Source: Isurus oxyrinchus
Taxonomy: Eukaryota
Reading direction: 5' to 3'
DNA length: 64,000 nt
NCBI GenBank assembly: GCA_026770705.1
Contig: JANJGN010000013.1
Span: forward strand, 100,998,001 to 101,062,000
Part shown: positions 331 to 63,803 of the stretch, one piece after another
Position numbering within the stretch: the first letter of the stretch is position 1
How the letters are laid out: the number at the start of each line of letters is the position of its first letter
Notes under the pieces: generated by a model
Databases searched by the model: none
The model's input: only the letters and a program-made list of their open reading frames with translations
What the model was told of the DNA's origin: nothing
Position numbers and translations under genes: made by a program

Positions 331-1497
331 GGCCAACACCATTTGGAGGAACAGGGAAACCAACAACCTCAGAGACTACCATCAGTGGTGGTGAGAATTG
401 TTCTTCTCCTCATCAGCATGTTAAGTTAATGTTGTGAGATTCGTGTATTAATATTCTGTAATATTTCCTCTGCTACATAGTGCGAACACTAACGACAGTG
501 ACAGGTGTACTTCCTGCTTCAGAAACCAGCATTTCTGGTGAGTAGAGCTAATTTGATTTGATTAGGTTAAATTATGTCAGAACGATTTGTGATTTAGCGC
601 TCTGCAATATGATTTCTGCTGCATAGGACCAACCCAAGCTACAGGGACAGGATTTGCAATGGTTTCAGAAACCAGGATTACCGGTGAGCACATGTTTTCT
701 CATTGCCATGTGAAGTTTGCCCTGCCAGCTGCAGGCAGTCAAGAGTCTTGATGTTTTTGCAAAATTGAAGTTGATGATATGTTGAGTCCAATCACATGGA
801 AATATCTAAATGAGTGCCAAATGAGTTGTTCCACAGTATTATTGGTAATGTTCTTACTTCATAAATGTGCTTCTTTATGCTTTGTTCTGGCAGTGGTTTC
901 TGATGGTAAAATTGTCAAATGATAATAAATTGTTAATGCTTTGTGTAAGCTTAGGTTAACTACTAGATTTTGAGAATTGAATTAGTGATAGGAGATTTTG
1001 GGTATAACTATTTTTCTGTTTCTTACCTTTCTAGTATCATCTCTAACATGTTCCTTCAACTGAAGGAAATTCAGACTACATTATATAGGAAAGCGATGCA
1101 GCCAGCAGTGAATTAATATGCTTACCATTTTCTCTGGTATTTAGGGCCAACACCATTTGGAGGAACAGGGAAACCAACAACCTCAGAGACTACCATCAGT
1201 GGTGGTGAGAATTGTTCTTCTCCTCATCAGCATCTTAAGTTAATGTTGTGCGATTCGTCTGTTAATATTCTGTGATATTTTCTCTGCTACATAGTGCCAA
1301 CATTTACTACAGTGACAGGTGTACTTCCTTCTTCAGAGACTAGCATTTCTGGTGTGTAGAACTAATTTCATCTGATTAGGTGAAACTATTTCAGAGCGAT
1401 TTGTGATTTAGCTATCTGCCATATGATCTCTGTTACATAGGACCAACTCCAGCTACAGGGACAGGCATTGCCATGGTTTCAGAAACCAAGATTACTG
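331..1497 (+). CDS. Microexon cluster C-D-E-C'-D'-E'
   Basis: C 331-390 (GPTPFGGTGKPTTSETTISG), D 481-537 (VRTLTTVTGVLPASETSIS), E 627-683 (GPTQATGTGFAMVSETRIT), C' 1145-1204, D' 1295-1351 (VPTFTTVTGVLPSSETSIS), E' 1441-1497 (GPTPATGTGIAMVSETKIT). All have AG/GT; short introns are 90 and 89 nt. Confidence 0.8.
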
Positions 1498-4400
1498 GTG
1501 AGGGCATTTTTTCTCATTGCCATGTGAAGTTTGCACTGCTAACTGTGGGTAGTCAAGGGTCTTGATGTTTTTTGCAAAATTGAAGTTGATGACATGTTGA
1601 GTCCAATCACATGGAAATGTATAAATGAGTGCCATATGAGTTGTTCCATAGAATTATTGGTAATGTTCTTACTTCATAAATGTGCTTCTTTATGTTTTGT
1701 TCTGGCAGTGGTTTCTGATGGTAAAATTGTCAAATGATAATAAATTGTTAACGCTTTGTGTAAGCTTAGGTGCAATTTTTATGCCACATTTTACAAAATG
1801 TGAGCAGAAATACCTTGTGCCTTTACTTACCTCACTGCTTATTGATGCATATTTGTTTTTTGATTAAAAGACGTGTTGATTAACGAGGTATGAGAATTAT
1901 GATTGTTGCCAGTTATAGTTGATATCTGGCATTGTCAAGTATTTCTTTCGGTCGAGGACGGAGCTGTTAAGTAAGCTTGTTGAATTGATTGGAGTCAGTC
2001 CGATGTGTCATTGTCGGATGAGTGATTGTGTTATTGGCAGTATCTTTGAATAGCAAGAGATACGGATCATGAAGACAGCCCAAAACCTTTTGAGAAATGG
2101 AGGAACTGGGGCCTGACAATTCCATTTGTTTTTTTGAAGCAAATATGGAAATTGGAAATTTGCGATTATTTGCTTTTTTGCATTTGTAGTTTGAAGAACT
2201 ATCAGGTTGCTGTTATTAATTTTAGAAACCTAAATGCATTTATTTGAACGAATGATGATGGCAGAAGACATCAGGTTATCTGATGAGTCGAGAAATGCTT
2301 GTCTGTCCTGAGGCCAATAGGATGTGCTTAATAGCATCTCAATTGATGAACTGGAAAATGAAAGGATTCTTTTGGGGTGATTTTGGGCAATGATGAGGCT
2401 TCCATGTGAAATATGTTTTTGGAAAGACAGAGAACATTATTTTCTCAAAATGGAATACAGCAAGGTTTCCATTAGCAAATAATTGGTGAAGTAGTGATGA
2501 GAAGTGCCATGTGCTGAGTGGGATTTTTAAATTGCGCCCCTGAAGTTGTTAGAAATATCAATCAGTTTGAAATCTTTCAAATTAATTTTGCCTGTTAAGA
2601 AGCGCTCAATCTTGTGAAGAAAAGCAAATGAAGCATTTGCTGACACCATGTTATTGAAGATATCATTGCCTGAAAATGAAGTGCCTTTTATCGGCAACTT
2701 TGTCCAGGAATTGCTCTGGAAGTTATCCTCTACCTTATTGGAAGGGAATTGCTGCTAGGCTTTGTTGTATATAATTATTGTTCTATTCCTTATCTTTGTA
2801 GAAGTAATTGTATGTTACTCCTTCAACTGAACTAGATGATGCGAATATCTCAACATTATCTCAGAAGTCGATGCAGCCAGTAGTGAATTAATAATCTGCC
2901 ATTTCCTCTGGCATTTAGGGCCAACACCATTTGGTGGAACTGGAAGGCCAAGAATTTTAGAGACCACCATCAGTGGTGAGTATGGCTCTTCTCCTCATCA
3001 GCATGTTAAGTTAAATTTCTGTGATTCGGGTATAAGTATTCTGTAATATTTCCTCTGCTACGTTAAATATAATCTTTCCTTGTAAACAACTGCTCACTCT
3101 TGTCAACAAAAGATTATGAAGCGTTTGTTGACACTCTGTCATTAAGGATATTCTTGCCGGAAAAGCAAATGCCTTTTGCTAGCAACTTGCTGCAGCACCT
3201 GCTCTGGAGGTTAACTGCTAGATTTTGAGAATTGAATTGGTGATAGGAGATTTTGTGAATAATTATTTTTCTGTTTCTTTCCTTTGTAGTATCATTTCTA
3301 GCTTGCTCCTTCAACTGATGTAAATTCAGTGTACATTTTCTAGGAAAGCAATGCAGCCAGTAGTGATTTAATATATTGCACCATTTTCTCCGGTATTTAG
3401 GGCCAACACCATTTGGTGGAACTGGAAGGCCAAGAACTTCAGAGACCACCATCAGTGGTGAGTATTGTTCTTCTCCTCATCAGCATGTTAAATAAAATTT
3501 CTGCGATTCGGGTATAAGTATTCTGTAATATTTCCTCTGCTACATCAAGTATAATCTTTCCTTGTAAACAATCGCTCATTCTTGTCAACAAAAGACAATG
3601 AATTGTTTGTTGCCATTTGTTGACACCATGTCATTCATGATATTCTTGCCTGAAAAGCAAATGCCTTTTGCAGGCAATTTGCTCCAGCAACTGCTCTGGG
3701 GTTTAACTGCTTGATTTTGAGAATTGAATTAGTGATAGGAGATTTTGGGTATAACTATTTTTCTGTTTCTTACCTTTCTAGTATCATCTCTAACATGTTC
3801 CTTCAACTGAAGTAAATTCAGTGTACATTATGTAGGAAAGCGATGCAGCCAGCAGTGAATTAATATGCTTTACCATTTTCTCTGGTATTTAGGGCCAACA
3901 CCATTTGGAGGAACAGGGAGACCAACAACTTCAGAGACTACCATCAGTGGTGGTGAGAATTGTTCTTCTCCTCATCAGCATGTTAAGTTAATGTTGTGCG
4001 ATTCGTGTATTAATATTCTGTAATATTTCCCCTGCTACATAGTGCGAACACTAACGACAGTGACAGGTGTACTTCCTGCTTCAGAAACCAGCATTTCTGG
4101 TGAGTAGAGCTAATTTCATTTGATTAGGTGAAATTATTTCAGAGCGATTTGTGAATTAGCGCTCTGCAATATGATCTCTGCTGCATAGGACCAACCCAAG
4201 CTACAGGGACAGGATTTGCAATGGTTTCATAAATTAGGATTACTGGTGAGCACATGTTTTCTCATTGCCATGTGAAGTTTGCCCTGCCAACTGCAGGCAG
4301 TCAAGGGTCTTGATGTTTTTGCAAAATTGAAGTTGATGTTATGTTGAGCCCAATCACATGGAAATGTCGAAATAAGTGCCAAATGGGTTTTCCACAGTAT

Positions 4401-7400
4401 TATTGGTAATGTTCTTACTTCATAAATGTGCTTCTTTATGCTTTGTTCTGGCAGTGGTTTCTGATGGTAAAATTGTTAAATGATAATAAATTGTTAACGG
4501 TTTGTGTAAGCTTAGGTTCAACTTTTAAGCCACATTTTACAAAATGTGAGGACAAACACCTTGTTCCTTTACTTTCCTCACTGCTTATTGATGTATATTT
4601 GTTTTGTGATTCAAAGACGTGTTGGTTAAAGAGGTATGAGAATTGTGATTGTTGCCAGTTATAGTTGATATCTGGCATTATCAAGTATTTCTTTTGGTCG
4701 AGGACGGAACAGTTAAGTAAGGTTGTTGAATTGATTGGAGTCAGTCCGCTGTGTCATTGTTGGATGAGTGATTGTGTTATTGGCAGTATCTTTGAATTAG
4801 CAAGCGATACGGATAATGAAGATGGCCCAAAACTCTTTGAGAAATGGAGGAACTGGGGCCTGACAATTCCATTTATTTTTTCAAAGCAAATATTGAAATT
4901 GAAAATTTGTGATTATTTGTGTTTTTGCATTTGTCGTTTGAAGAACTATCAGGTTGCTGTTATTAATTTTAGAGTCCTAAATGCATTTATTTGAACGAAT
5001 GATGATAGCAGAAGACATCAGGTTATCTGATGAGTAGAGAAATGCTTGTCTGTCCTGAGGCCAAGAGGATGTGCTTAAAAGCATCTCATTTGATGAACTG
5101 AAAAATGAAAGGATTCTTTTGGGGTGATTTTGGGCAATGATGAGGCTTCCATGTGAAATATGTATTTGGAAAGGCAGAGAACATTATTTTCTCAAAATGG
5201 AATACAGCAAGGTTTCCATTAGCAAATAATTGGTGAAGTAGTGATGAGAAGTGCCATGTGCTGAGTGGGATTTTTAAATTGCGCCCTTGAAGTTGTTAGA
5301 AATAACAAACAGTTTGAAATCTTTCAAATTAAGTTTTGCCTGTTAAGAAGTGCTCAATCTTGTGAATAGATGCAAATGAAGCATTTGCTGATACCATGTC
5401 ATTGAAGATATTATTGCCTGAAAATTAAGTGCCTTTTATTGGCAAATTTGTCCAGGAATTGCTCTGGAAGTTATCCTCTACCTTATTGGAAGGGAATTGC
5501 TGCTAGGCTATGTTGTATATAATTACTGTTCTATTCCTTTTCTTTGTAGAATTAAGTGTAAGTTGCTCCTTCAACTGAACCAGATGTTGCGAATATCTCA
5601 ACATTATCTCAGAAGCCGATGCAGCCAGTAGTGAATTAATAATCTGCCTTTTCCTCTGGCATTTAGGGCCAACGCCATTTGGAGGAGCAGGAAGACCAAG
5701 AACTTCAGAGACCACCTTCAGTGGTGAGTATTGTTCTTCTCCTCATCAGCATGTTAAGTTAAATTTCTGTGATTCGGATGTAAGTATTCTGTAATGTTTC
5801 CTCTGCTACGTTAGATATAATCTTTCCTTGTAATCAACTGCTCATTCTTGTCAACAAAAGATTATGAAGCGTTTGTTGACACTCTGTCATTAAGGATATT
5901 CTTGCCGGAAAAGCAAATGCCTTTTGCTAGCAACTTGCTCCAGCACGTGCTCTGGAGGTTAACTGCTAGATTTTGAGAATTGAATTGGTGATAGGAGATT
6001 TTGGGAATAATTATTTTTCTGTTTCTTACCTTTGTAGTATCATCTCTAGCTTACTGCTTCAACTGATGCAAATTTAGTTTACATTTTCTAGGAAAGCGAT
6101 GCATCCAGTAGTGATTTTATATATTGTACCATTTTCTCCGATATTTAGGGCCAACACCATTTGGTGGATCTGGAAGACCAAGAACTTCAGAGACCACCAT
6201 CAGTGGTGAGTATTATTCTTCTCCTTATCCGCGTGTTAAGTTCAATTTCTGCGATTTTTGTATTAGTATGCTGAAATATTTCCTCTGCTACATTAAGTAT
6301 AATCTTTCCTTGTAAACAATCGCTCATTCTTGTCGACAAAAGACAATGAATTGTTTGTTGACATTTGTTGACACCATATGCTTGCCTGAAAAGCAAATGC
6401 CTTTTGCAGGCAATTTGCTCCAGCAACTGCTCTGTAGATTAACTGCTGGATTTTGAGAATTGAATTAGTGATAAGTGATTTTGGGTATAACTATTTTACT
6501 GTTTCTTACCTTTCTAGTATCATCTCTAACGTGTTCCTTCAACTGAAGTAAATTCAGTGTACATTATGTAGGAAAGCGATGCAGCCAGCAGTGAATTAAT
6601 ATGCTTTACCATTTTCTCTGGTATTTAGGGCCAACACCATTTGGAGGAACAGGGAAACCAACAACCTCAGAGACTACCATCAGTGGTGGTGAGAATTGTT
6701 CTTCTCCTCATCAGCATGTTAAGTTAATGTTGTGAGATTCGTGTATTAATATTCTGTAATATTTCCTCTGCTACATAGTGCGAACACTAACGACAGTGAC
6801 AGGTGTACTTCCTGCTTCAGAAACCAGCATTTCTGGTGAGTAGAGCTAATTTCATTTGATTAGGTTAAATTATTTCAGAGCGATTTGTGATTTAGCGCTC
6901 TGCAATATGATTTCTGCTGCATAGGACCAACCCAAGCTACAGGGACAGGATTTGCAATGGTTTCAGAAACCAGGATTACCGGTGAGCACATGTTTTCTCA
7001 TTGCCATGTGAAGTTTGCCCTGCCAGCTGCAGGCAGTCAAGAGTCTTGATGTTTTTGCAAAATTGAAGTTGATGATATGTTGAGTCCAATCACATGGAAA
7101 TATCTGAATGAGTGCCAAATGAGTTGTTCCACAGTATTATTGGTAATGTTCTTACTTCATAAATGTGCTTCTTTATGCTTTGTTCTGGCAGTGGTTTTTG
7201 ATGGTAAAATTGTCAAATGATAATAAATTGTTAATGCTTTGTGTAAGCTTAGGTTAACTACTAGATTTTGAGAATTGAATTAGTGATAGGAGATTTTAGG
7301 TATAATTATTTTTCTGTTTCTTACCTTTCTAGTATCATCTCTAATATGTTCCTTCAACTAAAGTAAATTCAGTGTACATTATATAGGAAAGCGATGCAGC

Positions 7401-10400
7401 CAGCAGTGAATTAATATGCTTTACCATTTTCTCTGGTATTTAGGGCCAACACCATTTGGAGGAACAGGGAAACCAACAACCTCAGAGACTACCATCAGTG
7501 GTGGTGAGAATTGTTCTTCTCCTCATCAGCATCTTAAGTTAATGTTGTGCGATTCGTGTATTAATATTCTGTGATATTTTCTCTGCTACATAGTGCCAAC
7601 ATTTACTACAGTGACAGGTGTACTTCCTTCTTCAGAGACTAGCATTTCTGGTGTGTAGAACTAATTTCATCTGATTAGGTGAAACTATTTCAGAGCGATT
7701 TGTGATTTAGCTTTCTGCCATATGATCTCTGATACATAGGACCAACTCCAGCTACAGGGACAGGCATTGCCATGTTTTCAGAAACCAAGATTACTGGTGA
7801 GGGCATGTTTTCTCATTGCCATGTGAAGTTTGCACTGCTAACTGTGGGTAGTCAAGGGTCTTGATGTTTTTTGCAAAATTGAAGTTGATGACATGTTGAG
7901 TCCAATCACATGGAAATGTATAAATGAGTGCCATCTGAGTTGTTCCATAGAATTATTGGTAATGTTCTTACTTCATAAATGTGCTTCTTTATGCTTTGTT
8001 CTGGCAGTGGTTTCTGATGGTAAAATTGTCAAATGATAATAAATTGTTAACGCTTTGTGTAAGCTTAGGTGCAATTTTTATGCCACATTTTACAAAATGT
8101 GAGCAGAAATACCTTGTGCCTTTACTTACCTCACTGCTTATTGATGCATATTTGTTTTTTGATTAAAAGACGTGTTGATTAAAGAGGTATGAGAATTATG
8201 ATTGTTGCCAGTTATAGTTGATATCTGGCATTGTCAAGTATTTCTTTCGGTCAAGGACGGAGCTATTAAGTAAGCTTGTTGAATTGATGGGAGTCAGTCC
8301 GATGTGTCAATGTCGGATGAGTGATTGTGTTATTGGCAGTATCTTTGAATAGCAAGAGATACGGATCATGAAGACAGCCCAAAACCTTTTGAGAAATGGA
8401 GGATCTGGGGCCTGACAATTCCATTTGTTTTTTCGAAGCAAATATGGAAATTGAAAATTTGCGATTATTTGCTTTTTTGCATTTGTAGTTTGAAGAACTA
8501 TCAGGTTGCTGTTATTAATTTTAGAAACCTAAATGCATTTATTTGAACGAATGATGATGGCAGAAGACATCAGGTTATCTGATGAGTCGAGAAATGCTTG
8601 TCTGTCCTGAGGCCAATAGGATGTGCTTAATAGCATCTCAATTGATGAACTGGAAAATGAAAGGATTCTTTTGGGGTGATTTTGGGCAATGAAGAGGCTT
8701 CCATGTGAAATATGTTTTTGGAAAGACAGAGAACATTATTTTCTCAAAATGGAATACAGCAAGGTTTCCATTAGCAAATAATTGGTGAAGTAGTGATGAG
8801 AAGTGCCATGTGCTGAGTGGGATTTTTAAATTGCGCCTCTGAAGTTGTTAGAAATATCAATCAGTTTGAAATCTTTCAAATTAATTTTGCCTGTTAAGAA
8901 GCGCTCAATCTTGTGAAGAAAAGCAAATGAAGCATTTGCTGACACCATGTCATTGAAGATATCATTGCCTGAAAATGAAGTGCCTTTTATCGGCAACTTT
9001 GTCCAGGAATTGCTCTGGAAGTTATCCTCTACCTTATTGGAAGGGAATTGCTGCTAGGCTTTGTTGTATATAATTATTGTTCTATTCCTTATCTTTGTAG
9101 AAGTAATTGTATGTTGCTCCTTCAACTGAACTAGATGATGCGAATATCTCAACATTATCTCAGAAGTCGATGCAGCCAGTAGTGAATTAATAATCTGCCA
9201 TTTCCTCTGGCATTTAGGGCCAACACCATTTGGTGGAACTGGAAGGCCAAGAATTTTAGAGACCACCATCAGTGGTGAGTATGGCTCTTCTCCTCATCAG
9301 CATGTTAAGTTAAATTTCTGTGATTCGGGTATAAGTATTCTGTAATATTTCCTCTGCTACGTTAAATATAATCTTTCCTTGTAAACAACTGCTCATTCTT
9401 GTCAACAAAAGATTATGAAGCATTTGTTGACACCCTGTCATTAATGATATTCTTGCCGGAAAAGCAAATGCGTTTTGCAGGCAACTTGCTGCAGCACCTG
9501 CTCTGGAGGTAACCGCTAGATTTTGAGAATTGAATTGGTGATAGGAGATTTTGTGAATAATTATTTTTCTGTTTCTTACCTTTGTAGTATCATTTCTAGC
9601 TTGCTCCTTCAACTGATGTAAATTCAGTGTACATTTTCTAGGAAAGCAATGCAGCCAGTAGTGATTTAATATATTGCACCATTTTCTCCGGTATTTAGGG
9701 CCAACACCATTTGGTGGAACTGGAAGGCCAAGAACTTCAGAGACCACCATCAGTGGTGAGTATTGTTCTTCTCCTCATCAGCACGTTAAATAAAATTTCT
9801 GCGATTCGGGTATAAGTATTCTGCAATATTTCCTCTGCTACATCAAGTATAATCTTTCCTTGTAAACAATCGCTCATTCTTGTCAACAAAAGACAATGAA
9901 TTGTTTGTTGCCATTTGTTGACACCATGTCATTCATGATATTCTTGCCTGAAAAGCAAATGCCTTTTGCAGGCAATTTGCTCCAGCAACTGCTCTGGGGT
10001 TTAACTGCTTGATTTTGAGAATTGAATTAGTGATAGGAGATTTTGGGTATAACTATTTTTCTGTTTCTTACCTTTCTAGTATCATCTCTAACATGTTCCT
10101 TCAACTGAAGTAAATTCAGTGTACATTATGTAGGAAAGCGATGCAGCCAGCAGTGAATTAATATGCTTTACCATTTTCTCTGGTATTTAGGGCCAACACC
10201 ATTTGGAGGAACAGGGAGACCAACAACTTCAGAGACTACCATCAGTGGTGGTGAGAATTGTTCTTCTCCTCATCAGCATGTTAAGTTAATGTTGTGCGAT
10301 TCGTGTATTAATATTCTGTAATATTTCCCCTGCTACATAGTGCGAACACTAACGACAGTGACAGGTGTACTTCCTGCTTCAGAAACCAGCATTTCTGGTG

Positions 10401-52400: not shown

Positions 52401-55400
52401 GTGCTCTGCAGTATGATCTCTGCGAAATAGGACCAACTCCAGCTACAGGGACAGGCATTGGCATGGTTTCAGAGACCAGGATTACTGGGGTGGACATGTT
52501 TTCTCATTGCCATGTGAAGTTTGCCCTGCCAACAGTAGGCAGTCAAGGGTCTTGATGTTTTTGCACAATTGAAGTTGATGATATGTTTAGTCCAATCACA
52601 TGTAAATGTATAAATGAGTGCCAAATGAGGTGCTCCATAGTATTATTGGTAGTCTTCTTACTTCATAAATGTGCTTCTTTATGCTTTGTTCTGACAGTGG
52701 TTTCTGATGGTAAAATTGTCAAATGATAATAAACTATTAACGCTTTGTGTAAGCTTAGGTACAATTGCTGTGCCGCATTTTACAAAATGTGAGCACAAAT
52801 ACCTTGTTCCTTTACTTTCCTCACTGCTTATTGATGCATATTTGTTTTGTGATTAAAGACTTGTTGATTAAAGAGCTATGAGAATTGTGATTGTTGCCAG
52901 TTATAGTTGATATCTGGCATTGTCAAGTAATTCTTTTGATCCAGGACGGATCAGTTAAGTAAGCTTGTTGAATTGATTGGAGTCAGTCCGATGTGTCATT
53001 GTTGGATGAGTGATTGTGTTGTTGGCAGTATCTTTGAGTTAGCAAGCGATACGGGTAATGAAGACGGCCCAAAACTTTTTGAGAAATGGAGGAACTGGGG
53101 CCTGACAATTCCATTTGTTTTTTCGAAGCAAATATGGAAATTGAAAATTTGCGATTATTTGCTTTTTTGCATTTATACTTAGAAGAACTATCAGGTTGCT
53201 GTTATTAATTTTAGAAACCTAAATGCATTTATTTGAATGAATGATGAAAGCCGAAGACATCAGGTTATCTGATGAGTAGAGAAATGCTTGTCTGTCCTGA
53301 GGCCAAGAGGATGTGCTTAAAAGCATCTCATTTGATGAACTGGAAAATGAAAGGATTCTTTTGGGGTGATTTTGGGCAATGATGAGGCTTCCATGTGAAA
53401 TATGTGTTTGGAAAGACAGAGAACATTATTTTCTCAGAATGGTATACAGCAAGGTTTCCTTCCATTAGCAAATAATTGGTGAAGTAGTGATGAGAAGTGC
53501 CATGTGCTGAGTGGGATTTTTAAATTGCGCCCTTGAAGTTGTTAGAAATATCAATCAGTTTGAAATCATGCAAATTAAGTTTTGCCTGTTAAGAAGCGCT
53601 CAATCTCGTGAAGAAAAGCAAATGAAGCATTTGCTGACACCATGTCCTTGAAGCTATCATTGCCTGAAAATTAAGTGCCTTTTATTGGCAACTTGGTCAA
53701 GGAATTGCTCTGGAAGTTAACCTCTACCTTTTGGGAAGGGAATTGCTGCTAGGCTATGTTGTATATAATTATTGTTCTACTCCTTAACTTTGTAGAAGTA
53801 ATTGTAAGTGGCTCTTTCAACTGAACTAGATGATGCGAATAGCTCAACATTATCCCAGCAGCCGAAGCTTTCAGTTGTGAATTAATAACCTGTGCCATTT
53901 CCTCTGGCATTTAGGGCCAACGCCATTTGTAGGAACAGGAAGACCAAGAACTTCAGAGACCGCTATCAGTGGTGAGTATGGCTCTTCTCCTCATCAGCAT
54001 GTTAAGTTAAATTTCTGTGATTAGTGTAGAAGTATTCTGTAATATTTCCTCTGCTACGTTAAATATAATCTTTCCTTGTAAACAATCGCTCAATCTTGTC
54101 AACAAATGATAATGAATCGTTTGTTGACACCATGTCATTAATGATATTCTTGCCGTACAGCAAATGCCTTTTGCAGGCAACTTGCTCCAGCACCTGCTCT
54201 GGAGGTTAACTGCTAGATTTTGAGAATTGAATTGGTGATAGGAGATTTTGGGTATAATTATTTTTCTGTTTCTTACCTTTGTAGTATCATCTCTAGCTTA
54301 CTACTTCAACTGATGTAAATTTAGTGTACATTTTCTAGGAAAGCAATGCAGCCAGTACTGAATTAATATATTGTACCATTTTCACTGGTATTTAGGGCCA
54401 ACACCATTTGGTGGAAGAGGAAGACCAAGAACTTCAGAGACCACCATCAGTGGTGAGTATTGTTCTTCTCATTATCAGTGTGTTAAGTTAAATTTCTGCA
54501 ATTTGTGTATTAGTATGCTGAAATATTTCCTCTGCTGCATTAAGTATAATCTTTCCTTGTAAACAATCGCTCATTCTTGTTGAGAAAAGATAAAGAAGCG
54601 ATTGTTGACACCATGTCATTCATGATATTCTTGCCTGAAAAGCAAATGCCTTTTGCAGGCAACTTGCTCCAGCAACTGCTCTGGAGTTTAACTGCTAGAT
54701 TTTGAGAATTGAATTAGTGATAAGAAATTCTGGGCATAATTATTTTTCTGTTTCTTACCTTTGTAGTATCATCTCTAGCATACTCCTTCAACTGAAGTAA
54801 ATTCAGTGTACATTATGTAGGAAAGCGATGCAGCCAGCAGTGAATTAATATGCTTTATCATTTTCTCTGGTATTTAGGGCCAACACCATTTGGAGGAACA
54901 GGGAGACCAACAACTTCAGAGACTACCATCAGTGGTGGTGAGAATTGTTCTTCTCCTCATCAGCATGTTAATTAATGTTGTGCGATTCGTCTATTAATAT
55001 TCTGTAATATTTCTTCTGCTACATAGTGCCAACACTAACTACAGTGACAGGTGTACTTCCTGCTTCAGAGACCAGCATTTCTGTTGAGTAGAGCTAATTT
55101 CATTTGATTAGGTGAAATTATTTCAGAGCAATTTGTGATTTAGCGCTCTGCAAAATGATCTCTGCCACATAGGACCAACTCCATCTACAGGGTTAGGCAT
55201 TATCATGGTTTCAGAAACCAGGATTACTGGTGAGCACATGTTTTCTCATTGCCATGTGAAGTTTGCCCTGCCATAGGCAGTCAAGGGTCTTGATGTTTTT
55301 GCAAAATTGAAGTTGATGATATGTTGAGTCCAATCACATGGAAATGTCTAAATGAGTGCCTAATGAGGTGTTCCACAGCATTATTGGTAGTGTTCTTACT

Positions 55401-58400
55401 TCATAAATGTGCTTCTTTATGCTTTGTTCTGGCAGTGGTTTCTGATGGTAAAATTGTCAAATGATAATAAACTATTAACGCTTTGTGTAAGCTTAGGTAC
55501 AATTGCTGTGCCGCATTTTACAAAATGTGAGCACAAATACCTTGTTCCTTTACTTTCCTCACTGCTTATTGATGCATATTTGTTTTGTGATTAAAGACTT
55601 GTTGATTAAAGAGCTATGAGAATTGTGATTGTTGCCAGTTATAGTTGATATCTGGCATTGTCAAGTAATTCTTTTGATCCAGGACGGATCAGTTAAGTAA
55701 GCTTGTTGAATTGATTGGAGTCAGTCCGATGTGTCATTGTTGGATGAGTGATTGTGTTGTTGGCAGTATCTTTGAGTTAGCAAGCGATACGGGTAATGAA
55801 GATGGCCCAAAACTTTTTGAGAAATGGAGGAACTGGGGCCTGACAATTCCATTTGTTTTTTCGAAGCAAATATGGAAATTGAAAATTTGTGATTATTTGC
55901 TTTTTTGCATTTGTAGTTTGAAGAACTATCAGGTTGCTGTTATTAATTTTAGAGACCTAACTGCACTTATTTGAACGAATGATGATAGCAGAAGACATCA
56001 GGTTATCTGATGAGTAGAGCAATGCTTGTCTGTCCTGAGGCCAAGAGAAAGTGCTTAAAAGCATCTCATTTGATGAACTGGAAAATGAAAGGATTCTTTT
56101 GGGGTGATTTTGGGCAATCATGAGGCTTCCAAATGAAATATGTTTTTGGAAAGACAGAGAACATTATTTTCTCAAAAAGGAATACAGCAAGGTTTCTATT
56201 CGCAAATAATTGGTGAAGTAGTGATGAGAAGTGCCATGTGCTGAGTTGGACTTTTAAATTGCGCCCCTGAAGTTGTTAGAAATATCAATCAGTTTGAAAT
56301 CATGCAAATTAATTTCGCCTGTTAAGAAGCGCTCAATCTTGTGAAGAAAAGCAAATGAAGCATTTGCTGACACCATGTCATTGAAGATATCATTGCCTGA
56401 AAATGAAGTGCCTTTAATCGGCAACTTTGTCAGGAATTGCTCTGGAAGTTAACCTCTACCTTATGGGAAGGGAATTGCTGCTAGGCTCTGTTGTATATAA
56501 TTATTGTTCTATTCCTTATCTTTGTTGAAGTAATTGTAAGTTGCTCCTTCAACTGAACTAGATGATGTGGTTTATCTCAACATTATCTCAGAAGCCGATG
56601 CAGCCAGTAGTGAATTAATAATCTCTGCCATTTCCTCTGGCATTTAGGGCCAACGCCATTTGGAGGAACAGGAAGACCGAGAATTTCAGAAACCACCATC
56701 AGTGGTGAGTGTTGTTCTTCTCCTCATCAGCATGTTAAGTTAAATTTCTGTGATTAGTGTAGAAGTATTCTGTAATATTTCCTCTGCTACGTTAAATATA
56801 ATCTTTCCCTGTAAACAATCACTCATTCTTGTCAACAAAAGATTATGAAGCGTTTGTTGACACCCTGTCATTAATGATATTGTTGGCAGAAAAGCAATTG
56901 CCTTTTGCAGGCAACTTGCTCCAGCACCTGCTCTGGAGGTTAACCACTAGATTTTGAGAATTGAATTGGTGATAGTAGATTTTGGGAATAATTATTTTTC
57001 TGTTTCTTATCTTTGTAGTATCATCTCTAGCTTACTCCTTCAACTGATGTAAATTCATTGTACATTTTCTAGGAAAGCCAGGCAGCCAGTAGTGAATTAA
57101 TATATTGTACCATTTTCTCTGGTATTTAGGGCCAACACCATTTGTTGGAACTGGAAGACCAAGAACTTCAGAGACCACCATCAGTGGTGATTATTGTTCT
57201 TCTCCTTATTAGCGTGTTAATTTAAATTTCTGTGATTTGTGTATTAGTATGCTGAAATATTTCCTCTGCTACATTAAGTATAATCTTTCCATGTAAACAA
57301 TCGCTCATTCTTGTTGAGAAAATATAATGAAGCGATTGTTGACACCATGTCATTCATGATATTCTTGCCTGAAAAGCAAATGCCTTTTGCAGGCAACTTG
57401 TTCCAGCAACTGCTCTGGAGTTTAACTGCTAGATTTTGAGAATTGAATTATTGATAGAAGATTTTGGGTATAATTATTTTTTGTTTTTTACCTTTCTAGT
57501 ATCATCTCTAACATGCTCCTTCAACAGAAGTAAATTCAGTGTCCATTATGTAGGAAATCGATGCAGCCAGCAGTGAATTAATTTGCTTTACCATTTTCTC
57601 TGGTATTTAGGGCCAACATCATTTGGAGGAACAGGGAGACCAACAACTTCAGAGACTACCATCAGTGGTGGTGAGAACTGTTCTTCTCCTCATCAGCATG
57701 TTAAGTTAATGTTGTGCGATTCGTGTATTAATATTCTGTAATATTTCCTCTGCTACATAGTGCCAACACTAACTACAGTGACAGGTATACTTCCTGCTTC
57801 AGAGACCAGCGTTAATGGTGAGTAGAGCTTATTTAACTTCATTAGGTGAAATTATTTCAGAGCAATTTGTGATTTAGCTATCTGCAATATGATCTCTACT
57901 TTCAGGCTCTGTCTTACTCCCTCCCTTTTTCTTTGATACCAATGGGTCCTTGGGGTCATTTGTTATCAGAAATTGCCATTCATGTTCTTCTCCCTGATAA
58001 ACTAAGTTGTCTGCTAACATAGTGGTGATTTTTACCCCCTTTACGTTTATATTTCTCCCTTGTAGCAACAATGTCCATCTAGCGATTCTATTTTGGTTAA
58101 CTGTACCATCCTTAATCCTTCCGTCTAACAGTAGCTGTACAAGGGTGTGTTCTGTTAATATTGTAAGTGGGTTTAGTCCCACTATCTCGGTAAAATGCTG
58201 CACTGCCCAAAAGACAGCTAGCAAGTGTTTTTCGCATACCATATACCCCTGCTCTACTGATGAGAGCATATGTGAGGCGTACGCTACTGGTCGCAATTTC
58301 CTGTGTATCTCCTGCCGAAAGGGTGGTGTCTGTGGTAGCCACCTTCATTGAAAACGGCTCAGTTGGATTTGGGGTTTTCAGAGCAGGCGCGGCAGCTAGT

Positions 58401-61400
58401 GCTTGCTTTAGAGTGGTCATGGCCTGGTTGTGTTCTGTTTTCCACTCCCAGGCCACATTCTTTTTTAATAATTCCATTAGCGGGGCTGCTTTTGTGGCGA
58501 ATCCATCAATGTGGTCCCTGCAATATCCCACCAAGCCTAAGAAGGACCTTAAACCTTTTACATCCCATGGAACAGGGAGTCTGCCAACCGTCTCTGCCCA
58601 TCGTTTGTCAATGTCCCTCTTCCCCGGTGTCAGAATCATTCCCAAGTAAGTAACTTTTTGTTTCGTGATCAGTGCTTTTTTAGGGTTAATCTTTAATCCC
58701 AAGTCATGGAACAATTGCCGTAATTCACTTAGCAGTTAATAATGTTTCTTTTTGGTTTTAGTTTGTTGGAGTAAGTCGTCTACATACTGCACTAGACATT
58801 CGGGCCTCGAGAATCCTTTTAACCCTTCCCTCGCCATTGATGAAATATGGACGGGGAATTGTGGAATCCCTGTGGCAGGGCGATCCATGTATATTGCTGT
58901 CCTTGGAAAGTAAACGTGAATTTATATTGACACTCTTTCTCCAGTGGAATAGACCAAAAACCGTTACTTATGTCCAACACCATAAACCACTGCGCATCCT
59001 CATTTTGTCGAACTACTGTCTCTGGGCTAGTTGCTACAGTAGGGGCTGTTAACAGGGTGACTTTATTTAATTCTCTGTAATCTATCGTTAGTCGCCAGCT
59101 ACCGTCTGGTTTCCTCACTGGTCAAATCGGCGGGTTGTTAGTAGAAGCTATTGGTCTTAATATCCCTTGCTGCAGCAGACTCTGTATCACCTTTCCTATC
59201 TCTTCTTCTGTTTGTTTTGGGAAACTACTGGTTTGGGGTCTGGACCTTGTAAGTGAACATTCCCGGTCATTTCCCCACAAGCATGTTTATGTCGGGCGAA
59301 TACTATTGAGTTTTGTGCAATAATTTGTTGTACTTCACGATTGTCACTCATTTCTCCTGGTTCTATCTACATTTCCCCGATCATGCATATCCTATCCTGA
59401 TATTCCCCCCTGGGATGAGTGTGTGATTTATACTGCCTATGCCCAAAGGCATTTGCCAAATCATACAATTAACGGGGTCAAAGCAGAGTCCCACTTTGGC
59501 CATATAGTTGCTCCCTAATATATGTTCTTGTTCTCTGGGTAATTTGATAAGGGCCACTGAATGCTCTATCAATATGTCTCCCACACCGACTTCCAATGGT
59601 ACACTCACATATCCCACTTGTGAATGCCTTGTGAATCCACTTAGAATAATTTTGTTTTGAATTTTCCAATCTATGTCATTGATCTGAGTGGTGTTAACGG
59701 TGGTTCGGGACCCACCTGTGTCCCAAAGGAATGTAATAGGGTGGCCTCCAACCCTACCATTCACTAGGGGTCTCCCCGTGTCATCCCACCGCGTATCACA
59801 CACCCATAACGGAGAGGCCTGAGACTGTCATTGCAGTTCGGGGTACAACCCGGAACTCAGTGGTATTTCTGTCATATCACACTGAGGACTTGGTCTATTT
59901 GGCTGTTCCATGGGTAGGTTCTGGTTTCCTCCCCAACCTGCATTTTCTCATCTCGAATTCAGGCAGTCCCTTGCGAAGTGTCCCTCTCGGCCACAGTTAT
60001 AGCATCTGGACACCTCGCCCTGAGTTCACCCCGTTCCCGAGAAGTTTCCTTTTCCTCTGCCTCTACCTCTTCCCACTGTCTGATAAGCTGGAGGGGGTTC
60101 CCTCTGAGTAGGTCCCCTCCCTTCATTTCTCCAGGTTGTCGCCTGATTCTTAACAGGCATTGCTCTGTCCCTGGATGTCTTTCATAGTTTTGGTGTTTCC
60201 CTTTCCCATTCTCTAACCATCTTCTTAATTATCCAGGGCTCCGTATGTGTGTCATCAGTGGGATCAAACTGATCTAATGCCTTGCTCGACTCCTCAGTGC
60301 CATGCAACACTAGCGTTCTCAGCCATCGGTTCCTAAACACCAGCTGTAAGTTATCCCTATCTAGGCCTATGCCATAGACCCCTTGAAACACCGCCCAAAT
60401 GTGAGCCAAAAATACGGTGGGGTGCTCACCTTTTCTTTGATAGCATTTCATCAGCCCTGCCACTGGGTCCCCTCTGTTATCGCCCGTGACAGATAATACC
60501 TAGTTCTTTAAGGCCTCATTTTTGCCTCTACCAAGTTTTTGTTCCTCCGGTAGGGCAGAGTGTATATGTGGATGTAGGCACGTTAGAATTAATTTTCTTT
60601 CCTTGGTATCGTCTAAGCTGTGTACCCCTCTCTGTTGCCTGACCGCTAGGAACAACTCCCTAGGATCATTCCCGGGCACGCACGTCTCAATTTCTTTCGC
60701 AACATCCCTCAGTTGTTGTACCCCAAGTGGGGTGGAATATATCATATTTGGGCTGGCTGGCCCCTGGCCACCTGCCCCTGCTTGTGCTCTAGTGGTTACA
60801 AGGGGGGCCATTGGGGCAGTCGGTTTTTCTGGCTCTGGAATATATGCCGGCGGTGGAACCTCTGGTGGAGGTTCCCTGTCACCACTGCTGTATCTATCCG
60901 CCCCGTCTGCTAAATCATCCCAATCTACATCCCCTTGATTGTTTTCTTCTCCTCTTCTGGGTGCGAAAGCACACAGTATGCCCCCTCTGTATAGCTAGCT
61001 GATCTTGCGGCCTCACTATCTTCTGGCACTTTGTGCGATCACTGGTACTGTTCCTTTTTTCCTGAGCTGCTCTGTGAATCACATTCATAGCAGTTTTTAA
61101 ATCACTACATTGTTGTTTCCATCCCTCCACCTCAGCTTTAGCTGCTTGGGCTTCTCCCTCTCTCTTACCTCTTTTCATTAACCAATTTTTCGCACCGTAA
61201 CTGATATTGGTTCAAATCTGCACTTCTCTGTCTCTTTAAATCACTTACCTTCTCACTAAGGCCGGCTATCTCCTCACTGAATTTTTTATTCTCTCCCTCT
61301 AGTCTGTCTCTCTCCCTCCTAGCCTGCTGTCGGCATTCTATCCATTTCTCAAATAAACATCCGATTGCTACGGACTTTTGTACCTTTTTAAATTTCTTGA

Positions 61401-63803
61401 CATCTTTGTGCAGTTCTCCAAAGGGCTTCCCCAGTGGGTTTTCCCTTATCACCAATGTGACCTGCATACTCCCCGTATTGCGGCCACTTCCCTATTACAT
61501 ATTTTTGGAGGAGTCCCTTCCAGGCAAAACAATCCAAGTCCCCAGGGCTTGGATATTCCCCTTGATTCGTCATCTTATGTTAATGGCTATGAATTAACCC
61601 AAACTCCTGTTCTCTGTGTGCTTTGCCAACTTGGTTCGGTTTGAGGCTCCCGCTGACTCAATGGAGAGATTTATCCTCGAGCCCACCCAGGGACGCCAAA
61701 TATGTTGCCGGAGATCACTGGTAATGGTTATTAGCTTTGTACACAGAGGAGAAGAGTCAATTCTCTCTTAACTCTAAATTTGCTTTATTCGTGTCATTAG
61801 ATCATCTGTATATAGCTTATATGTCTGGTTAAATATAGACATGCAGTTTACAGCAGGTTATACAGTTTTATACCCAAAACTAGGATCTAAACGCACACCA
61901 ACTAAGTTTCTCTGACAGTCCCTGAGTGGTCACAGGATATAAAAGCTAATACCCAAAAAGGAGAGCTGATGCTGGCCAGGCGTTCCATTCTCTTCTCTCG
62001 TGTCTCTACATTGCTGACGTAGGTTCTTCCGCTTCTGCGATGGTTGGTCTCCGGAGTCTTCGCTGCTCTATGCCCGAAAACCTCCAGTCCTATACTGAAT
62101 CTTATCTCTTCAAGCTGTGCTGTCTCTCTCCCATTGGTTTAGGCCTGCTTGCCTAGTCTGTGGCATATTTTCATTGGCTTTGTTCCAAGACTTAGGTAGC
62201 ATTTCCTTGTTCCTCCTGTCCTAAATAAGGACTTGTGTCTTATCTCATTCCCTTTGTTCTTCAAGAAACTCAGCTACTTCAAACTGTTTCCAGCCAGCTC
62301 AGTCCAGTGACTGGACTCAGGTTACTTCAGGTCAAAAGTTGCTTTTGCCTGTGTCAGCAGTTCAGCTGCAGCTCCTGGCCAACACGTGTGAAGTTTGCCC
62401 TGCCAACCGTAGGCAGTCAAGGGTCTTGATGTTTTTGCAAAATTGAAGTTGATGATATGTTGAGTCCAATCACATGGAAATGTATAAATGAGTGTCATAT
62501 GAGTAGTTCCACAGTATTATTTGTAATGTTTGTACTTCTTAATTGTGCTTCTTCATCCTTTGTACTGACAATGGTCAAATGCTAGTAAATTGTGAATTCT
62601 TTGTGTCACCTTTGGTACAATTTCTGTGCCTTATGTTGGAAAATTTGAGCACAAGCATCTTGGTGTTTTACCTGCCTCACGGCATATTGACACATATTTG
62701 TTTGGAGATTAAAAGATCTTCTCACTGAATCGTTATTAGAAAAGTGATTGTAACCAGATATAATAGATATCTGGCGTTATGAATTCTAACTTTCTGTAGA
62801 GGACTGTGTTGTTAAATCAGGTTGTTGGATTTATTGGATATTGCTGATCCTGCTGATAGTTGATTGCATTCATGGCAATATGTTTTAATTTACAAGAGGC
62901 ACTCATTATGAAGACTGCCCACAACCTATTGAGAAATGGAGAACCCAGGGAATGACAGCCTCCATTTGTGTACTTGAAGCAAATATTGAAAACAAAAATT
63001 TGGGATTATGAGAAAGCATCTCATCTGATAAATTGCAAAATGAAAAGGATTCTTTTTGGATAATTTTGGACACTGATGATCCTTGCATGTGCACTTTCTA
63101 TTAAGAAAGACTGACAAAATTATTTCCTCAGATGGAAATAAAGCAAAGTGCTCATTAGCGAATAATTGAAAAGTAGTGATGAAAAGTGCCATGTGCTCAG
63201 TGGGATTTTTAAAATGCACCCTTAAAATTGTTAGAAATATCAATCAGTTTGAAATTTTTAAAATTTAGGTTTCGCTGGTAAACAAGCGCTCAATCTTTTG
63301 CTCAAAGTTTGCTGACATCATGACATTTAAGATGTCCTTGCCTGAAAAGTAACTGCCATTTGCAGGCAACTAGCTCCAACTAACTGCTTTGGAGGTTAAC
63401 CACTGGATTTTGGGAATTGAATTACTGATGGGATATTTTGAGTATAATTAATTTTCAGCTCCTTACCTGTGGTAGAAGCAATTCTAACTTGCTTCTTCAC
63501 CTGAACTAAATGAATACAAATGAACATCTAAACATGATCTTGGAAACCAATGCAGCCAGTAGTGAATTAATATATTGTACCATTTCCTCTGGTATTTAGG
63601 GCCAACACCATTTGGAGGAACAGGAAGACCATTAACTTCAGAGACCACCATCAGTGGTGATTATTGTTCTTCTCCTCACCAGCATGTTAAATTAATTTTC
63701 TGCGATTTGTGTATTAATATTCTGTAATATTTCCTCTGCTACATAGCGAAAACGGCAACTACTGTGACAGGTGTACTTCCTGCTCCTGAGTCCGGCATTA
63801 CTG
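331..63803 (+). CDS. Interior of a large spliced gene: ~112 tandem phase-1 microexons encoding a Gly/Pro/Thr/Ser-rich mucin-like (or proteoglycan-like) repeat domain; 5' and 3' ends lie outside the window
   Basis: Recurring 57/60-nt blocks are each preceded by a pyrimidine tract + AG (tttctctggtatttag, cctctgctacatag, ctctgctgcatag) and followed by GTGAG. Lengths are multiples of 3 and all exons are phase 1-1. Spliced translation gives continuous PTS/G-rich repeats. Labels used below: A, B, C, C' = GPTPFGG class; D = V(R/P)T(L/F)TTVTG class; E = GPT(Q/P)ATGTG class. Family assignment is inference from composition only. Confidence 0.8.
2919..4245 (+). CDS. Microexon cluster A-B-C-D-E (E has in-frame TAA)
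   Basis: A 2919-2975, B 3401-3457 (GPTPFGGTGRPRTSETTIS), C 3893-3952, D 4043-4099, E 4189-4245 with TAA at 4230-4232. Confidence 0.78.
5667..7796 (+). CDS. Microexon cluster A-B-C-D-E-C'-D'-E'
   Basis: A 5667-5723, B 6149-6205, C 6629-6688, D 6779-6835, E 6925-6981, C' 7444-7503, D' 7594-7650, E' 7740-7796. All have AG/GT and an open frame. Confidence 0.8.
9218..10534 (+). CDS. Microexon cluster A-B-C-D-E (E has TAA and a 9-nt deletion)
   Basis: A 9218-9274, B 9699-9755, C 10191-10250, D 10341-10397, E 10487-10534 (48 nt, TAA 10528-10530). Confidence 0.78.
11952..14081 (+). CDS. Microexon cluster A-B-C-D-E-C'-D'-E'
   Basis: A 11952-12008, B 12434-12490, C 12914-12973, D 13064-13120, E 13210-13266, C' 13729-13788, D' 13879-13935, E' 14025-14081. 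Confidence 0.8.
15503..16819 (+). CDS. Microexon cluster A-B-C-D-E (E has TAA and a 9-nt deletion)
   Basis: A 15503-15559, B 15984-16040, C 16476-16535, D 16626-16682, E 16772-16819 (TAA 16813-16815). Confidence 0.78.
18237..20366 (+). CDS. Microexon cluster A-B-C-D-E-C'-D'-E'
   Basis: A 18237-18293, B 18719-18775, C 19199-19258, D 19349-19405, E 19495-19551, C' 20014-20073, D' 20164-20220, E' 20310-20366. Confidence 0.8.
21787..23111 (+). CDS. Microexon cluster A-B-C-(D)-(E)
   Basis: A 21787-21843 (GPMPSGGTGRPRSSETTIS), B 22269-22325, C 22759-22818. D 22909-22965 has acceptor AG>TG; E 23055-23111 has TAA at 23096-23098. Confidence 0.77.
23590..25203 (+). pseudogene. Penelope-like reverse transcriptase + GIY-YIG endonuclease, N-truncated, single internal stop
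   Basis: One frame throughout: FYLLPKIHK..PGRPIIS..MDVQSLYTSIP..AMGTHMGPSYA..LRYIDD, TAG at 24523-24525, then ..VPLVLTYHP..CKRCNTC..NLVYCIRCSQCGLLYIGETKRKLGDRVAEH..GLN, ending in TGA at 25201-25203. Confidence 0.92.
25603..25641 (+). ncRNA. Degenerate minimal type-I hammerhead ribozyme motif in the Penelope-like 3' region
   Basis: AGTT-CTGTCGA-A-AGGTC-ATGAG-GACTC-GAAA-TGTC-AACT. Stem I is AGTT/AACT and stem II is GGTC/GACT. The core deviates from CUGANGA and GAAAC. Minimal hammerheads are an established feature of Penelope-like element termini. Confidence 0.55.
26657..28785 (+). CDS. Microexon cluster A-B-C-D-(E)-C'-D'-E'
   Basis: A 26657-26713, B 27139-27195, C 27619-27678, D 27769-27825, E 27915-27971 (acceptor AG>GG), C' 28433-28492, D' 28583-28639 (weak donor GTCTGT), E' 28729-28785. 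Confidence 0.78.
30208..31528 (+). CDS. Microexon cluster A-B-C-(D)-(E)
   Basis: A 30208-30264, B 30690-30746, C 31179-31238. D 31326-31382 has acceptor TG; E 31472-31528 has acceptor GG. Confidence 0.77.
32949..33793 (+). CDS. Microexon cluster A-C-(D)-E (B module absent)
   Basis: A 32949-33005, C 33441-33500, D 33591-33647 (acceptor TG), E 33737-33793. Confidence 0.77.
35214..36539 (+). CDS. Microexon cluster A-B-C-D-(E)
   Basis: A 35214-35270, B 35695-35751, C 36187-36246, D 36337-36393, E 36483-36539 with CAA>TAA at 36491-36493. Confidence 0.77.
37957..39277 (+). CDS. Microexon cluster A-B-C-(D)-(E)
   Basis: A 37957-38013, B 38439-38495, C 38928-38987. D 39075-39131 has acceptor TG; E 39221-39277 has acceptor GG. 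Confidence 0.77.
40698..41542 (+). CDS. Microexon cluster A-C-(D)-E (B module absent)
   Basis: A 40698-40754, C 41190-41249, D 41340-41396 (acceptor TG), E 41486-41542. Confidence 0.77.
42963..44288 (+). CDS. Microexon cluster A-B-C-D-(E)
   Basis: A 42963-43019, B 43444-43500, C 43936-43995, D 44086-44142, E 44232-44288 with TAA at 44240-44242. Confidence 0.77.
45706..47022 (+). CDS. Microexon cluster A-B-C-D*-(E)
   Basis: A 45706-45762, B 46188-46244 (donor GTGCGT), C 46670-46729, D 46820-46876 (last base T rather than G), E 46966-47022 (donor GT>GG). Confidence 0.77.
48429..49745 (+). CDS. Microexon cluster A-B-C-D*-(E)
   Basis: A 48429-48485, B 48911-48967, C 49393-49452, D 49543-49599 (ends in T), E 49689-49745 (donor GG). 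Confidence 0.77.
51172..52487 (+). CDS. Microexon cluster A-B-C-D*-(E)
   Basis: A 51172-51228, B 51653-51709, C 52135-52194, D 52285-52341 (ends in T), E 52431-52487 (donor GG). Confidence 0.77.
53915..55229 (+). CDS. Microexon cluster A-B-C-(D)-E
   Basis: A 53915-53971, B 54396-54452, C 54878-54937, D 55027-55083 (donor GT>TT), E 55173-55229 (GPTPSTGLGIIMVSETRIT). Confidence 0.77.
56648..57817 (+). CDS. Microexon cluster A-B-C-D (E removed at the retroviral junction)
   Basis: A 56648-56704, B 57130-57186, C 57611-57670, D 57761-57817 (VPTLTTVTGILPASETSVN). The D-E intron breaks off at 57897. Confidence 0.77.
57898..59827 (-). pseudogene. pol: Pol fragment: aspartic protease, reverse transcriptase, RNase H-like connection/tether; disrupted and truncated
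   Basis: FLWDTGGSRT (59711-59725); KPDGSWRLTIDYRELNK; LDISNGFWSIPL; YTWIALPQGFHNSP; YVDD at 58775-58786; LRSFLGLVGYCR; RPVAYAS..EKHLLA..TEH..RIARW..LADNL. Confidence 0.9.
59828..61573 (-). pseudogene. gag: Gag, disrupted by frameshifts and stops
   Basis: ORF fragments 61388-61573, 61165-61467, 60915-61178 (coiled-coil-like), 60500-60811 and 60182-60463. Motifs: PPAY 60842-60853, PTAP 60812-60823, CYNCGREGHFARDC 59963-60004, LYPEL 59834-59848. Ends in TGA at 59828-59830. The start codon is uncertain. Confidence 0.8.
61677..61698 (-). promoter_or_regulatory. Primer-binding site complementary to tRNA-Asn
   Basis: The - strand reads TGGCGTCCCTGGGTGGGCTCGA, 4 nt from the LTR end. The + strand TCGAGCCCACCCAGGGACGCCA matches the vertebrate tRNA-Asn(GUU) 3' end including CCA, as I recall that sequence. 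Confidence 0.85.
61703..62384 (-). repeat. 5' LTR (682 bp)
   Basis: 5-bp inverted termini TGTTG (61703) / CAACA (62384). On the - strand there are CCAAT boxes at 62173-62177 and 62133-62137, a weak TATA-like site near 62091-62094, and AATAAA at 61784-61789. The PBS is adjacent. Confidence 0.8.

Follow-up and report, generated by a model that had tools for sequence, protein, structure and literature searches.

The analysed window, a 64,000-nucleotide stretch of the genome of Isurus oxyrinchus, covers the PTS-coding part of a gel-forming mucin gene of the Muc19-like kind in a shark. Upstream of the array of repeat exons, tblastn gives a weak match to a signal-peptide exon and identifies three VWD-C8-TIL units, D1–D3 (pieces of Pfam C8, TIL and VWD), whose exon parts contain no stops. 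The exon that links D3 to the first PTS exons was not found in exon scans. Downstream, a predicted chain of six exons leads from the last repeat through a VWC-like module and a cystine knot to the stop, and its frame is open throughout. The knot gives weak Pfam DAN/Cys_knot matches on one exon, below the cut-off. The distance from the last PTS exon to the stop is predicted to be 600 nt, and a poly(A) signal lies 64 nt past the predicted stop. The central domain is PTS-rich, as its intact exons sum to 3,946 residues with 25.6% T, 11.8% S, 12.6% P and 17.8% G. Open D-domain exons, the open chain to the cystine knot and spliced RNA contigs (see below) bear out the initial annotation in its view that the gene is live. 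Mucin O-glycosylation, polymerisation and secretion are expected of the gel-forming type and are putative here.

An apparent frameshift at the first VWC exon was rejected because a paralogue enters the same exon in phase 0 and the frame into it is made continuous by a linker exon of 59 nt at +91,692, which passes from phase 1 to phase 0. This VWC exon (L024:2659-2760) is three codons shorter than that of the paralogue and is without the W of the W-x-D-P motif, which shark relatives keep. The downstream region at ~130-264 kb (window coordinates) is heavily self-repeated, with an offset of ~82 kb between matches.

The D3 domain places the gene among Muc19-type mucins. Its nearest relatives are shark 'mucin-19-like' and 'mucin-2-like' proteins (75-76% identity across 80 D3 residues), and its top non-shark matches are tetrapod MUC19. 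In a quick maximum-likelihood tree of 44 rows, which holds no true Muc6 row, the shark clade and the Muc19-named rows split from the Muc2/5-named rows with an SH-aLRT of 100. Muc19 is syntenic with LRRK2; the best COR-A match, to a putative LRRK-type gene, lies on contig C25 and none on contig C13, which carries the present gene. A protein search with one repeat exon and its flanks gave no match. Neither of the two features that characterize MUC2/MUC5 was matched: no VWD match occurs downstream within 177 kb (tblastn), and the CysD parts of the Mustelus asterias mucin-19-like protein P0001 and of Rhincodon typus P0002, the closest elasmobranch members, give no match as queries, although P0001 and P0002 themselves carry CysD. 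The P0002 model ends by read-through of a homologous repeat-exon donor, and some clusters of the Muc19 type comprise 35-42 sequences under isoform names. Muc6 and Muc19 lack a fourth VWD unit, and Muc19/spiggin-type mucins share with the present gene the order of three VWD-C8-TIL units, PTS, VWC and knot with no fourth VWD-C8-TIL unit (PMC4948705). Human MUC2, MUC5AC, MUC5B and MUC6 hold their PTS in one large exon (PMC9712336), whereas 240 exons of 57-60 nt take its place here.

Contig C13 carries a cluster of six mucin genes with D3 within 1.5 Mb (100.83-102.32 Mb), and the present gene comes first among them; ghost shark has three Muc19 paralogues (Lang et al., PMC4948705). Three of the five neighbours contain 57-63-nt phase-1 PTS micro-exons in the stretches sampled, and the other two contain long single-exon PTS frames (L041, L054). 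Four further D3 matches lie on contig C10. Repeat peptides of the neighbouring paralogues occur in P0027, which its source names a Carcharodon carcharias mucin.

Repeat exons were catalogued by blastn together with their flanks in the window and 200 kb on each side (Table 1). In window coordinates, the whole array spans about -62,818 to +86,629 and consists of ~240 exons: 132 G, 56 D and 52 E. The G class comprises the GPTPFGG-type exons, of which A and B are 57 nt and C and C' are 60 nt. All repeat exons are 57 or 60 nt long and in phase 1-1, and thus dropping any one of them keeps the frame. The C-D and D-E introns measure 90 and 89 nt, respectively. E is preceded by only 7-9 pyrimidines among the 14 positions from -18 to -5 in its common variants, whereas G and D have 10-11, and reading on into the intron after C or A meets an in-frame stop.

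Table 1. Features of the repeat-exon array and the gene that contains it (window coordinates).
Feature	Position	Strand	Basis
Whole gene, signal-peptide exon to stop	near -167,445 to +104,030	+	homology matches and predicted chain
PTS micro-exon array, part in window (62 G, 26 D, 24 E)	331..63803	+	blastn catalogue
Example C exon (G class, 60 nt, GPTPFGGTGKPTTSETTISG), then 90-nt intron	331..390	+	catalogue; C-to-D joint in RNA
Example D exon (57 nt, VRTLTTVTGVLPASETSIS), then 89-nt intron	481..537	+	catalogue; RNA contigs
Example intact E exon (57 nt, GPTQATGTGFAMVSETRIT), weaker pyrimidine tract (9/14)	627..683	+	catalogue
Example A and B units: G exon and intron to just short of the D acceptor, then distal long intron	2919..3892	+	alignment to C-D-E unit
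E with GAA>TAA, intact AG/GT	4189..4245 (stop at 4230); same allele in E 23055	+	catalogue
Two 6,285-bp higher-order repeat copies, 99.9% identical	5667..18236	+	
E with GAA>TAA and 13-nt deletion removing the donor	10487, 16772	+	catalogue
D with acceptor AG>TG	22909..22965; also 31326, 33591, 39075, 41340	+	catalogue
Penelope-like intronic insert, 2.1 kb, RT and GIY-YIG	23580..25710	+	
E with acceptor AG>GG	27915..27971; also 31472, 39221	+	catalogue
7,749-bp higher-order repeat in two copies (99.9% identity), with two dead D and two dead E in each	30208..45705	+	
E with CAA>TAA, intact AG/GT	36483..36539; also 44232	+	catalogue
E with donor GT>GG	46966..47022; also 49689, 52431	+	catalogue
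D with donor GT>TT	55027..55083	+	catalogue
LTR-retroelement/retrovirus-like fragment, 4.5 kb, where the E after D 57761 is missing	57897..62385	-	protein-match pieces
Diverged D without donor (AA)	63747..63803	+	catalogue

The three exon classes differ in their state of preservation. A recount reproduced exactly the figures of the initial annotation for the window: every A, B, C and C' copy keeps AG, GT, a length of 57 or 60 nt and an open frame (62/62 G), whereas 7/26 D and 12/24 E are disabled. The label of the intact class was too narrow, since only 53 of the 62 exons read exactly GPTPFGG. The two stop alleles, the acceptor losses and the donor losses listed for E were all found, as were the acceptor losses of five D copies and the donor losses of two. 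The E described as deleted outright at 57.9 kb is indeed absent; a retroelement-like fragment on the minus strand stands in its place (it has pieces resembling gag, protease and RT/RNase H, and self-comparison shows no terminal repeat), and there is no clean deletion. Across the whole array, G is intact in 132/132 copies, 12/56 D are without AG or GT (one of these has a GC donor that may work), and the 52 E include 13 splice-dead copies and 10 that have a stop with intact AG/GT. The absence of dead G copies is not an ascertainment artefact, because an nhmmer profile search of 464 kb found none; the search added three degenerate D/E-like remnants at the array ends. Thirteen D' copies in the whole array have weak donors (GTGTGT/GTCTGT), among them five in the window (1295, 7594, 13879, 20164 and 28583), which were counted as intact and may be silent. 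In the units at 31179-31528 and 38928-39277, the D and E acceptor losses occur together, and each is found separately in other units; this suggests recombination or conversion between units, and parsimony needs two events.

Contigs from four runs presumed to be RNA were compared with one unit that holds all exon classes; the contigs are assembled and filtered and give no inclusion levels. Run X5 yielded 11 contigs that cover exons only, and its GT..AG joints together with this exon-only cover speak for its being RNA. The joints connect B to C' (GT..AG, depth 151), C to D (90-nt GT..AG intron, depth 96), D to A (depth 139) and a D of the SVN variant, as in 57761, to G. Run X3 has a contig in which D 68386 is followed directly by G, without the dead E that lies between them. 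A contig of 676 nt reaches into the last PTS exon and has the length expected from the predicted distances to the stop and the poly(A) signal. One difference in the last PTS exon indicates that the RNA donor is an individual other than the assembled one. Runs X8 and X1 gave no contigs on the unit. No contig lies on E 6925, D' 7594 or E' 7740, and this is not counted as evidence, given the filtering of the contigs, their potential 3' bias and the different individual.

These joints bear differently on D and E, both of which had been proposed to be mostly skipped. For D, the proposal is contradicted: D is present in spliced RNA through its C-to-D, D-to-A and D-to-G joints, and no D carries a stop (0/56; 0.4-1.3 expected), which would fit an included exon, weakly. 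For E, skipping is likely in general, and the RNA joints themselves pass dead E only. Five D copies (36337, 44086, 46820, 49543 and 52285) are the best fits to the D of the D-to-A joint. Because a dead E follows each of them, the joint documents only that dead E are skipped, and it could also arise if stop-bearing transcripts decay. The general case is arithmetic and rests on ten stop-bearing, splice-intact E copies in one haplotype of a spliced gene: inclusion of each at 10% would leave 35% of transcripts full length, and inclusion at 30% would leave 2.8%.

Is the contrast between the classes more than a product of shared ancestry? The naive comparison (Fisher P 2e-8) overstates it because the copies share ancestry. 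As the initial annotation had cautioned, the counts are not independent: the 19 dead window copies reduce to ~7 point alleles, with one further E lost outright. Correction for ancestry weakens the contrast, which survives with P from 0.001 to 0.08 depending on the test. When distinct stop and splice alleles are compared with flanking-intron rates, G has 0 alleles versus 5.84 expected in the window (P 0.003) and 0 versus 6.49 in the core array. The corresponding core values are 2 versus 1.60 for D and 4 versus 1.65 for E; rescaled by the synonymous rate of each class, the core expectations become ~2.1 for D, ~3.2 for E and ~5.4 for G. In the window, E has 4 lesion alleles versus an intron-based expectation of 1.29 (P 0.04). 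Synonymous alleles amount to 1.9-2.2 times the intron rate in E and 0.71-0.83 of it in G, and the G value suggests homogenisation besides selection. E exon bodies change ~1.6-2 times faster than the neighbouring intron (0.72 vs 0.45 events/site), synonymous sites included.

A parsimony test of splice-site events, with only the adjacent downstream intron as its baseline, gives 0 events in G versus 3.83 expected in the window (P 0.022) and 0 versus 5.79 in the core (P 0.003); against the same baseline, G third positions change at 0.89 vs 0.96 events/site while AG/GT remain at 0. The strictest, history-matched test uses 50 physically linked C-D-E units, in which splice-site events number 0 in C, 4 in D and 3 in E, plus two stop alleles in E. 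The chance that all lesions miss C is 0.02-0.07; C alone has 0 lesions versus 1.2-2.1 expected, and lesion alleles compared with other exon alleles give a Fisher P of 0.046-0.078. On modest numbers of independent events, G thus lies below the neutral expectation and D and E lie about at it. Selection on one exon class, as originally proposed, is in line with these results. An active retirement of D and E is unsupported, given the agreement of D (2 vs 1.6-2.1) and E (4 vs 1.65-3.2) with their core expectations. Nor does dN/dS, suggested as a check, separate the classes: calculated as (nonsynonymous observed/expected)/(synonymous observed/expected) in the core array, it is 0.84 for G, 1.06 for D and 0.95 for E. 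Values near 1 in all classes indicate that the frame and splicing are guarded, not the residues.

We propose, with a probability of about 0.6, that G is kept intact, that D is spliced in but likely dispensable, and that E is likely skipped for the most part, with its stops escaping selection. Relaxed selection would then follow splicing, and the class that decays would depend on inclusion. E, behind an 89-nt intron with a broken pyrimidine tract, is probably poorly recognised; as a poorly included exon, it would accumulate stops and splice hits at the neutral rate. D is included, as its joints show, and loss of its splicing may be tolerated as a presumably neutral change that removes 19 residues in frame from ~3,500-3,900 PTS residues. 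The splice sites of G are likely guarded, since G would serve as an anchor exon between long introns and a failed donor would read into the intron stop. Protection of the G acceptor would form a part of the G deficit beyond this intron-stop argument, which covers donor loss. Unequal crossover would then amplify whatever a unit carries. In line with the LPA comparison below, the ten stop-bearing copies point to skipping.

Chance combined with hitch-hiking, in which a few lesions happened to fall in D and E and were multiplied by higher-order duplication without class-specific selection, is an unlikely account of the contrast. The small number of alleles behind the 19 dead copies and the E lost at 57.9 kb, the 99.5-99.9% identity of the repeat units and a matched-test P of 0.02-0.07 speak for it. 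However, the mutational exposure of G is about twice that of D and E combined, yet G carries no lesion allele where 5.8-6.5 are expected and no splice-site lesion where 3.8-5.8 are expected, and A/B units as well as the two ends of the array have lost D/E too. In place of splice-site selection, G could be kept clean by gene conversion if this is more frequent among the numerous G copies. In favour of this, conservation between A, B and C is equal in the G exon and in the intron downstream of it (85-89%, compared with 71-78% in the upstream flank), and G synonymous alleles are under the intron expectation. This explanation is nonetheless quite improbable, as the splice deficit stays when the adjacent downstream intron is the baseline (P 0.022 in the window and 0.003 in the core), third positions change at nearly the intron rate while AG/GT do not, and conversion would spread a lesion as readily as erase one.

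Two further explanations assign a role to the losses themselves, and we consider both very unlikely. Active removal of D and E by positive selection for a G-rich repeat would account for the excess of E lesion alleles in the window, for the donor deletion that came after the stop in three E copies and for the deletion of D and E from A/B units. However, synonymous alleles of E show an equal rise (1.9-2.2 times), which leaves no excess once synonymous rates are used for calibration; D matches its expectation and is spliced in, and the youngest repeats still copy intact D and E. Stop-bearing E could instead be regulated poison exons that yield a truncated, knot-less mucin or tune expression at the mRNA level, and ten copies with a stop and intact AG/GT are scattered along the array. 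These ten nevertheless trace to two alleles, and other E were inactivated at their splice sites, a change that no such function would survive. The 13-nt donor deletion on stop-bearing E, found also at -22484 and thus in three copies, removed the donor after the stop had arisen; it would be a second hit that neutralises a poison exon.

The class-specific preservation of G is accompanied by a turnover of the repeat composition inside the working gene, as had been suggested. Aligned to the C-D-E unit, A/B units break at +146 and resume near +1450, ~1.3 kb on, and they are triplets from which D and E were deleted; the composition has thereby moved from a G-D-E triplet towards G, and the diverged array ends retain G-D(-E) units. 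Copies of the higher-order units measure 6.3, 8.4, 7.75 and 2.7 kb and share 99.9, 99.5, 99.9 and 95-97% identity, respectively, and duplication at this scale (2.7-8.4 kb) spread few lesions into many units. The youngest of these repeats still duplicate intact D and E. A pure assembly duplication is unlikely, as repeat copies differ by 6-37 substitutions. The Penelope-like insert is present in three copies that are 99.95-100% identical and were duplicated with the 8.4-kb unit, whose duplication they would date. The turnover likely reflects relaxed selection and unequal crossover, with no directed retirement.

The paralogue arrays provide a comparison within the same cluster. They share the exon design, but their introns are ~270 nt or longer versus 89-90 nt here. 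With partial coverage, and with seed artefacts and edge rows dropped, ~3/68 exons are flagged in the three sampled arrays (2/29, 1 unclear of ~34, and 0/5), not by class.

Mammalian MUC19 has a multi-exon repeat layout, and the repeat cassettes of Xenopus FIM-B.1 are spliced. Xenopus FIM-C.1 is highly polymorphic through alternative splicing, and the variation of integumentary mucins is described there at the transcript level, not as genomic decay of one cassette class, in the part of the source consulted (PMC7177656). In chicken MUC2, the repeats are spread over several exons and the PTS has a splice variant that keeps the frame (PMC3549977). The PTS of chicken Muc13 carries one near-identical ~20-residue repeat per exon, and splicing has been proposed to explain its length variation; Muc13 differs in being a membrane mucin with at least 12 repeats, and the relevant section of that account describes no dead exons or class contrast (PMC1552070). 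In the human LPA gene, the KIV-2 coding tandem array hides nonsense variants, of which R21X lowers Lp(a); there, a single stop in a repeat that is included suffices for a null allele, whereas ten stop-bearing copies stand in one haplotype here (PMC7442989). Unlike its Muc19-type relatives, the present gene has three exon classes behind 89-90-nt introns and class-specific decay. A full-text literature search, which reached few subscription papers and neither the primary Muc19 nor the primary FIM-B.1 gene papers, turned up no description of mucin repeat exons decaying by class.

Thus, the gene type and the layout of one repeat per exon are known, and the uncommon element is a countable record of exon-class decay. 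More tentatively, and at slightly less than even odds, the locus may represent exon birth and death inside one working gene, with splicing efficiency picking the class. A G-D-E triplet would have been amplified ~50-fold; E, behind two ultra-short introns, would have fallen silent first, D would erode by splice loss only, and G alone would be held, so that the repeat sequence is rewritten without amino-acid-level selection, which would not be so in the longer-intron paralogues. Gene models that take every AG..GT repeat as included would arrive at too many residues or mistake such a gene for a pseudogene. The fast turnover of mucin repeat domains prevents their alignment between species, and the process is rarely visible in a working gene. 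Here each repeat is its own exon, which allows every gain, silencing or loss of a copy to be counted, with the paralogues as controls. Intron length, splice-site strength, inclusion level and stop tolerance can thereby be linked in a testable way.
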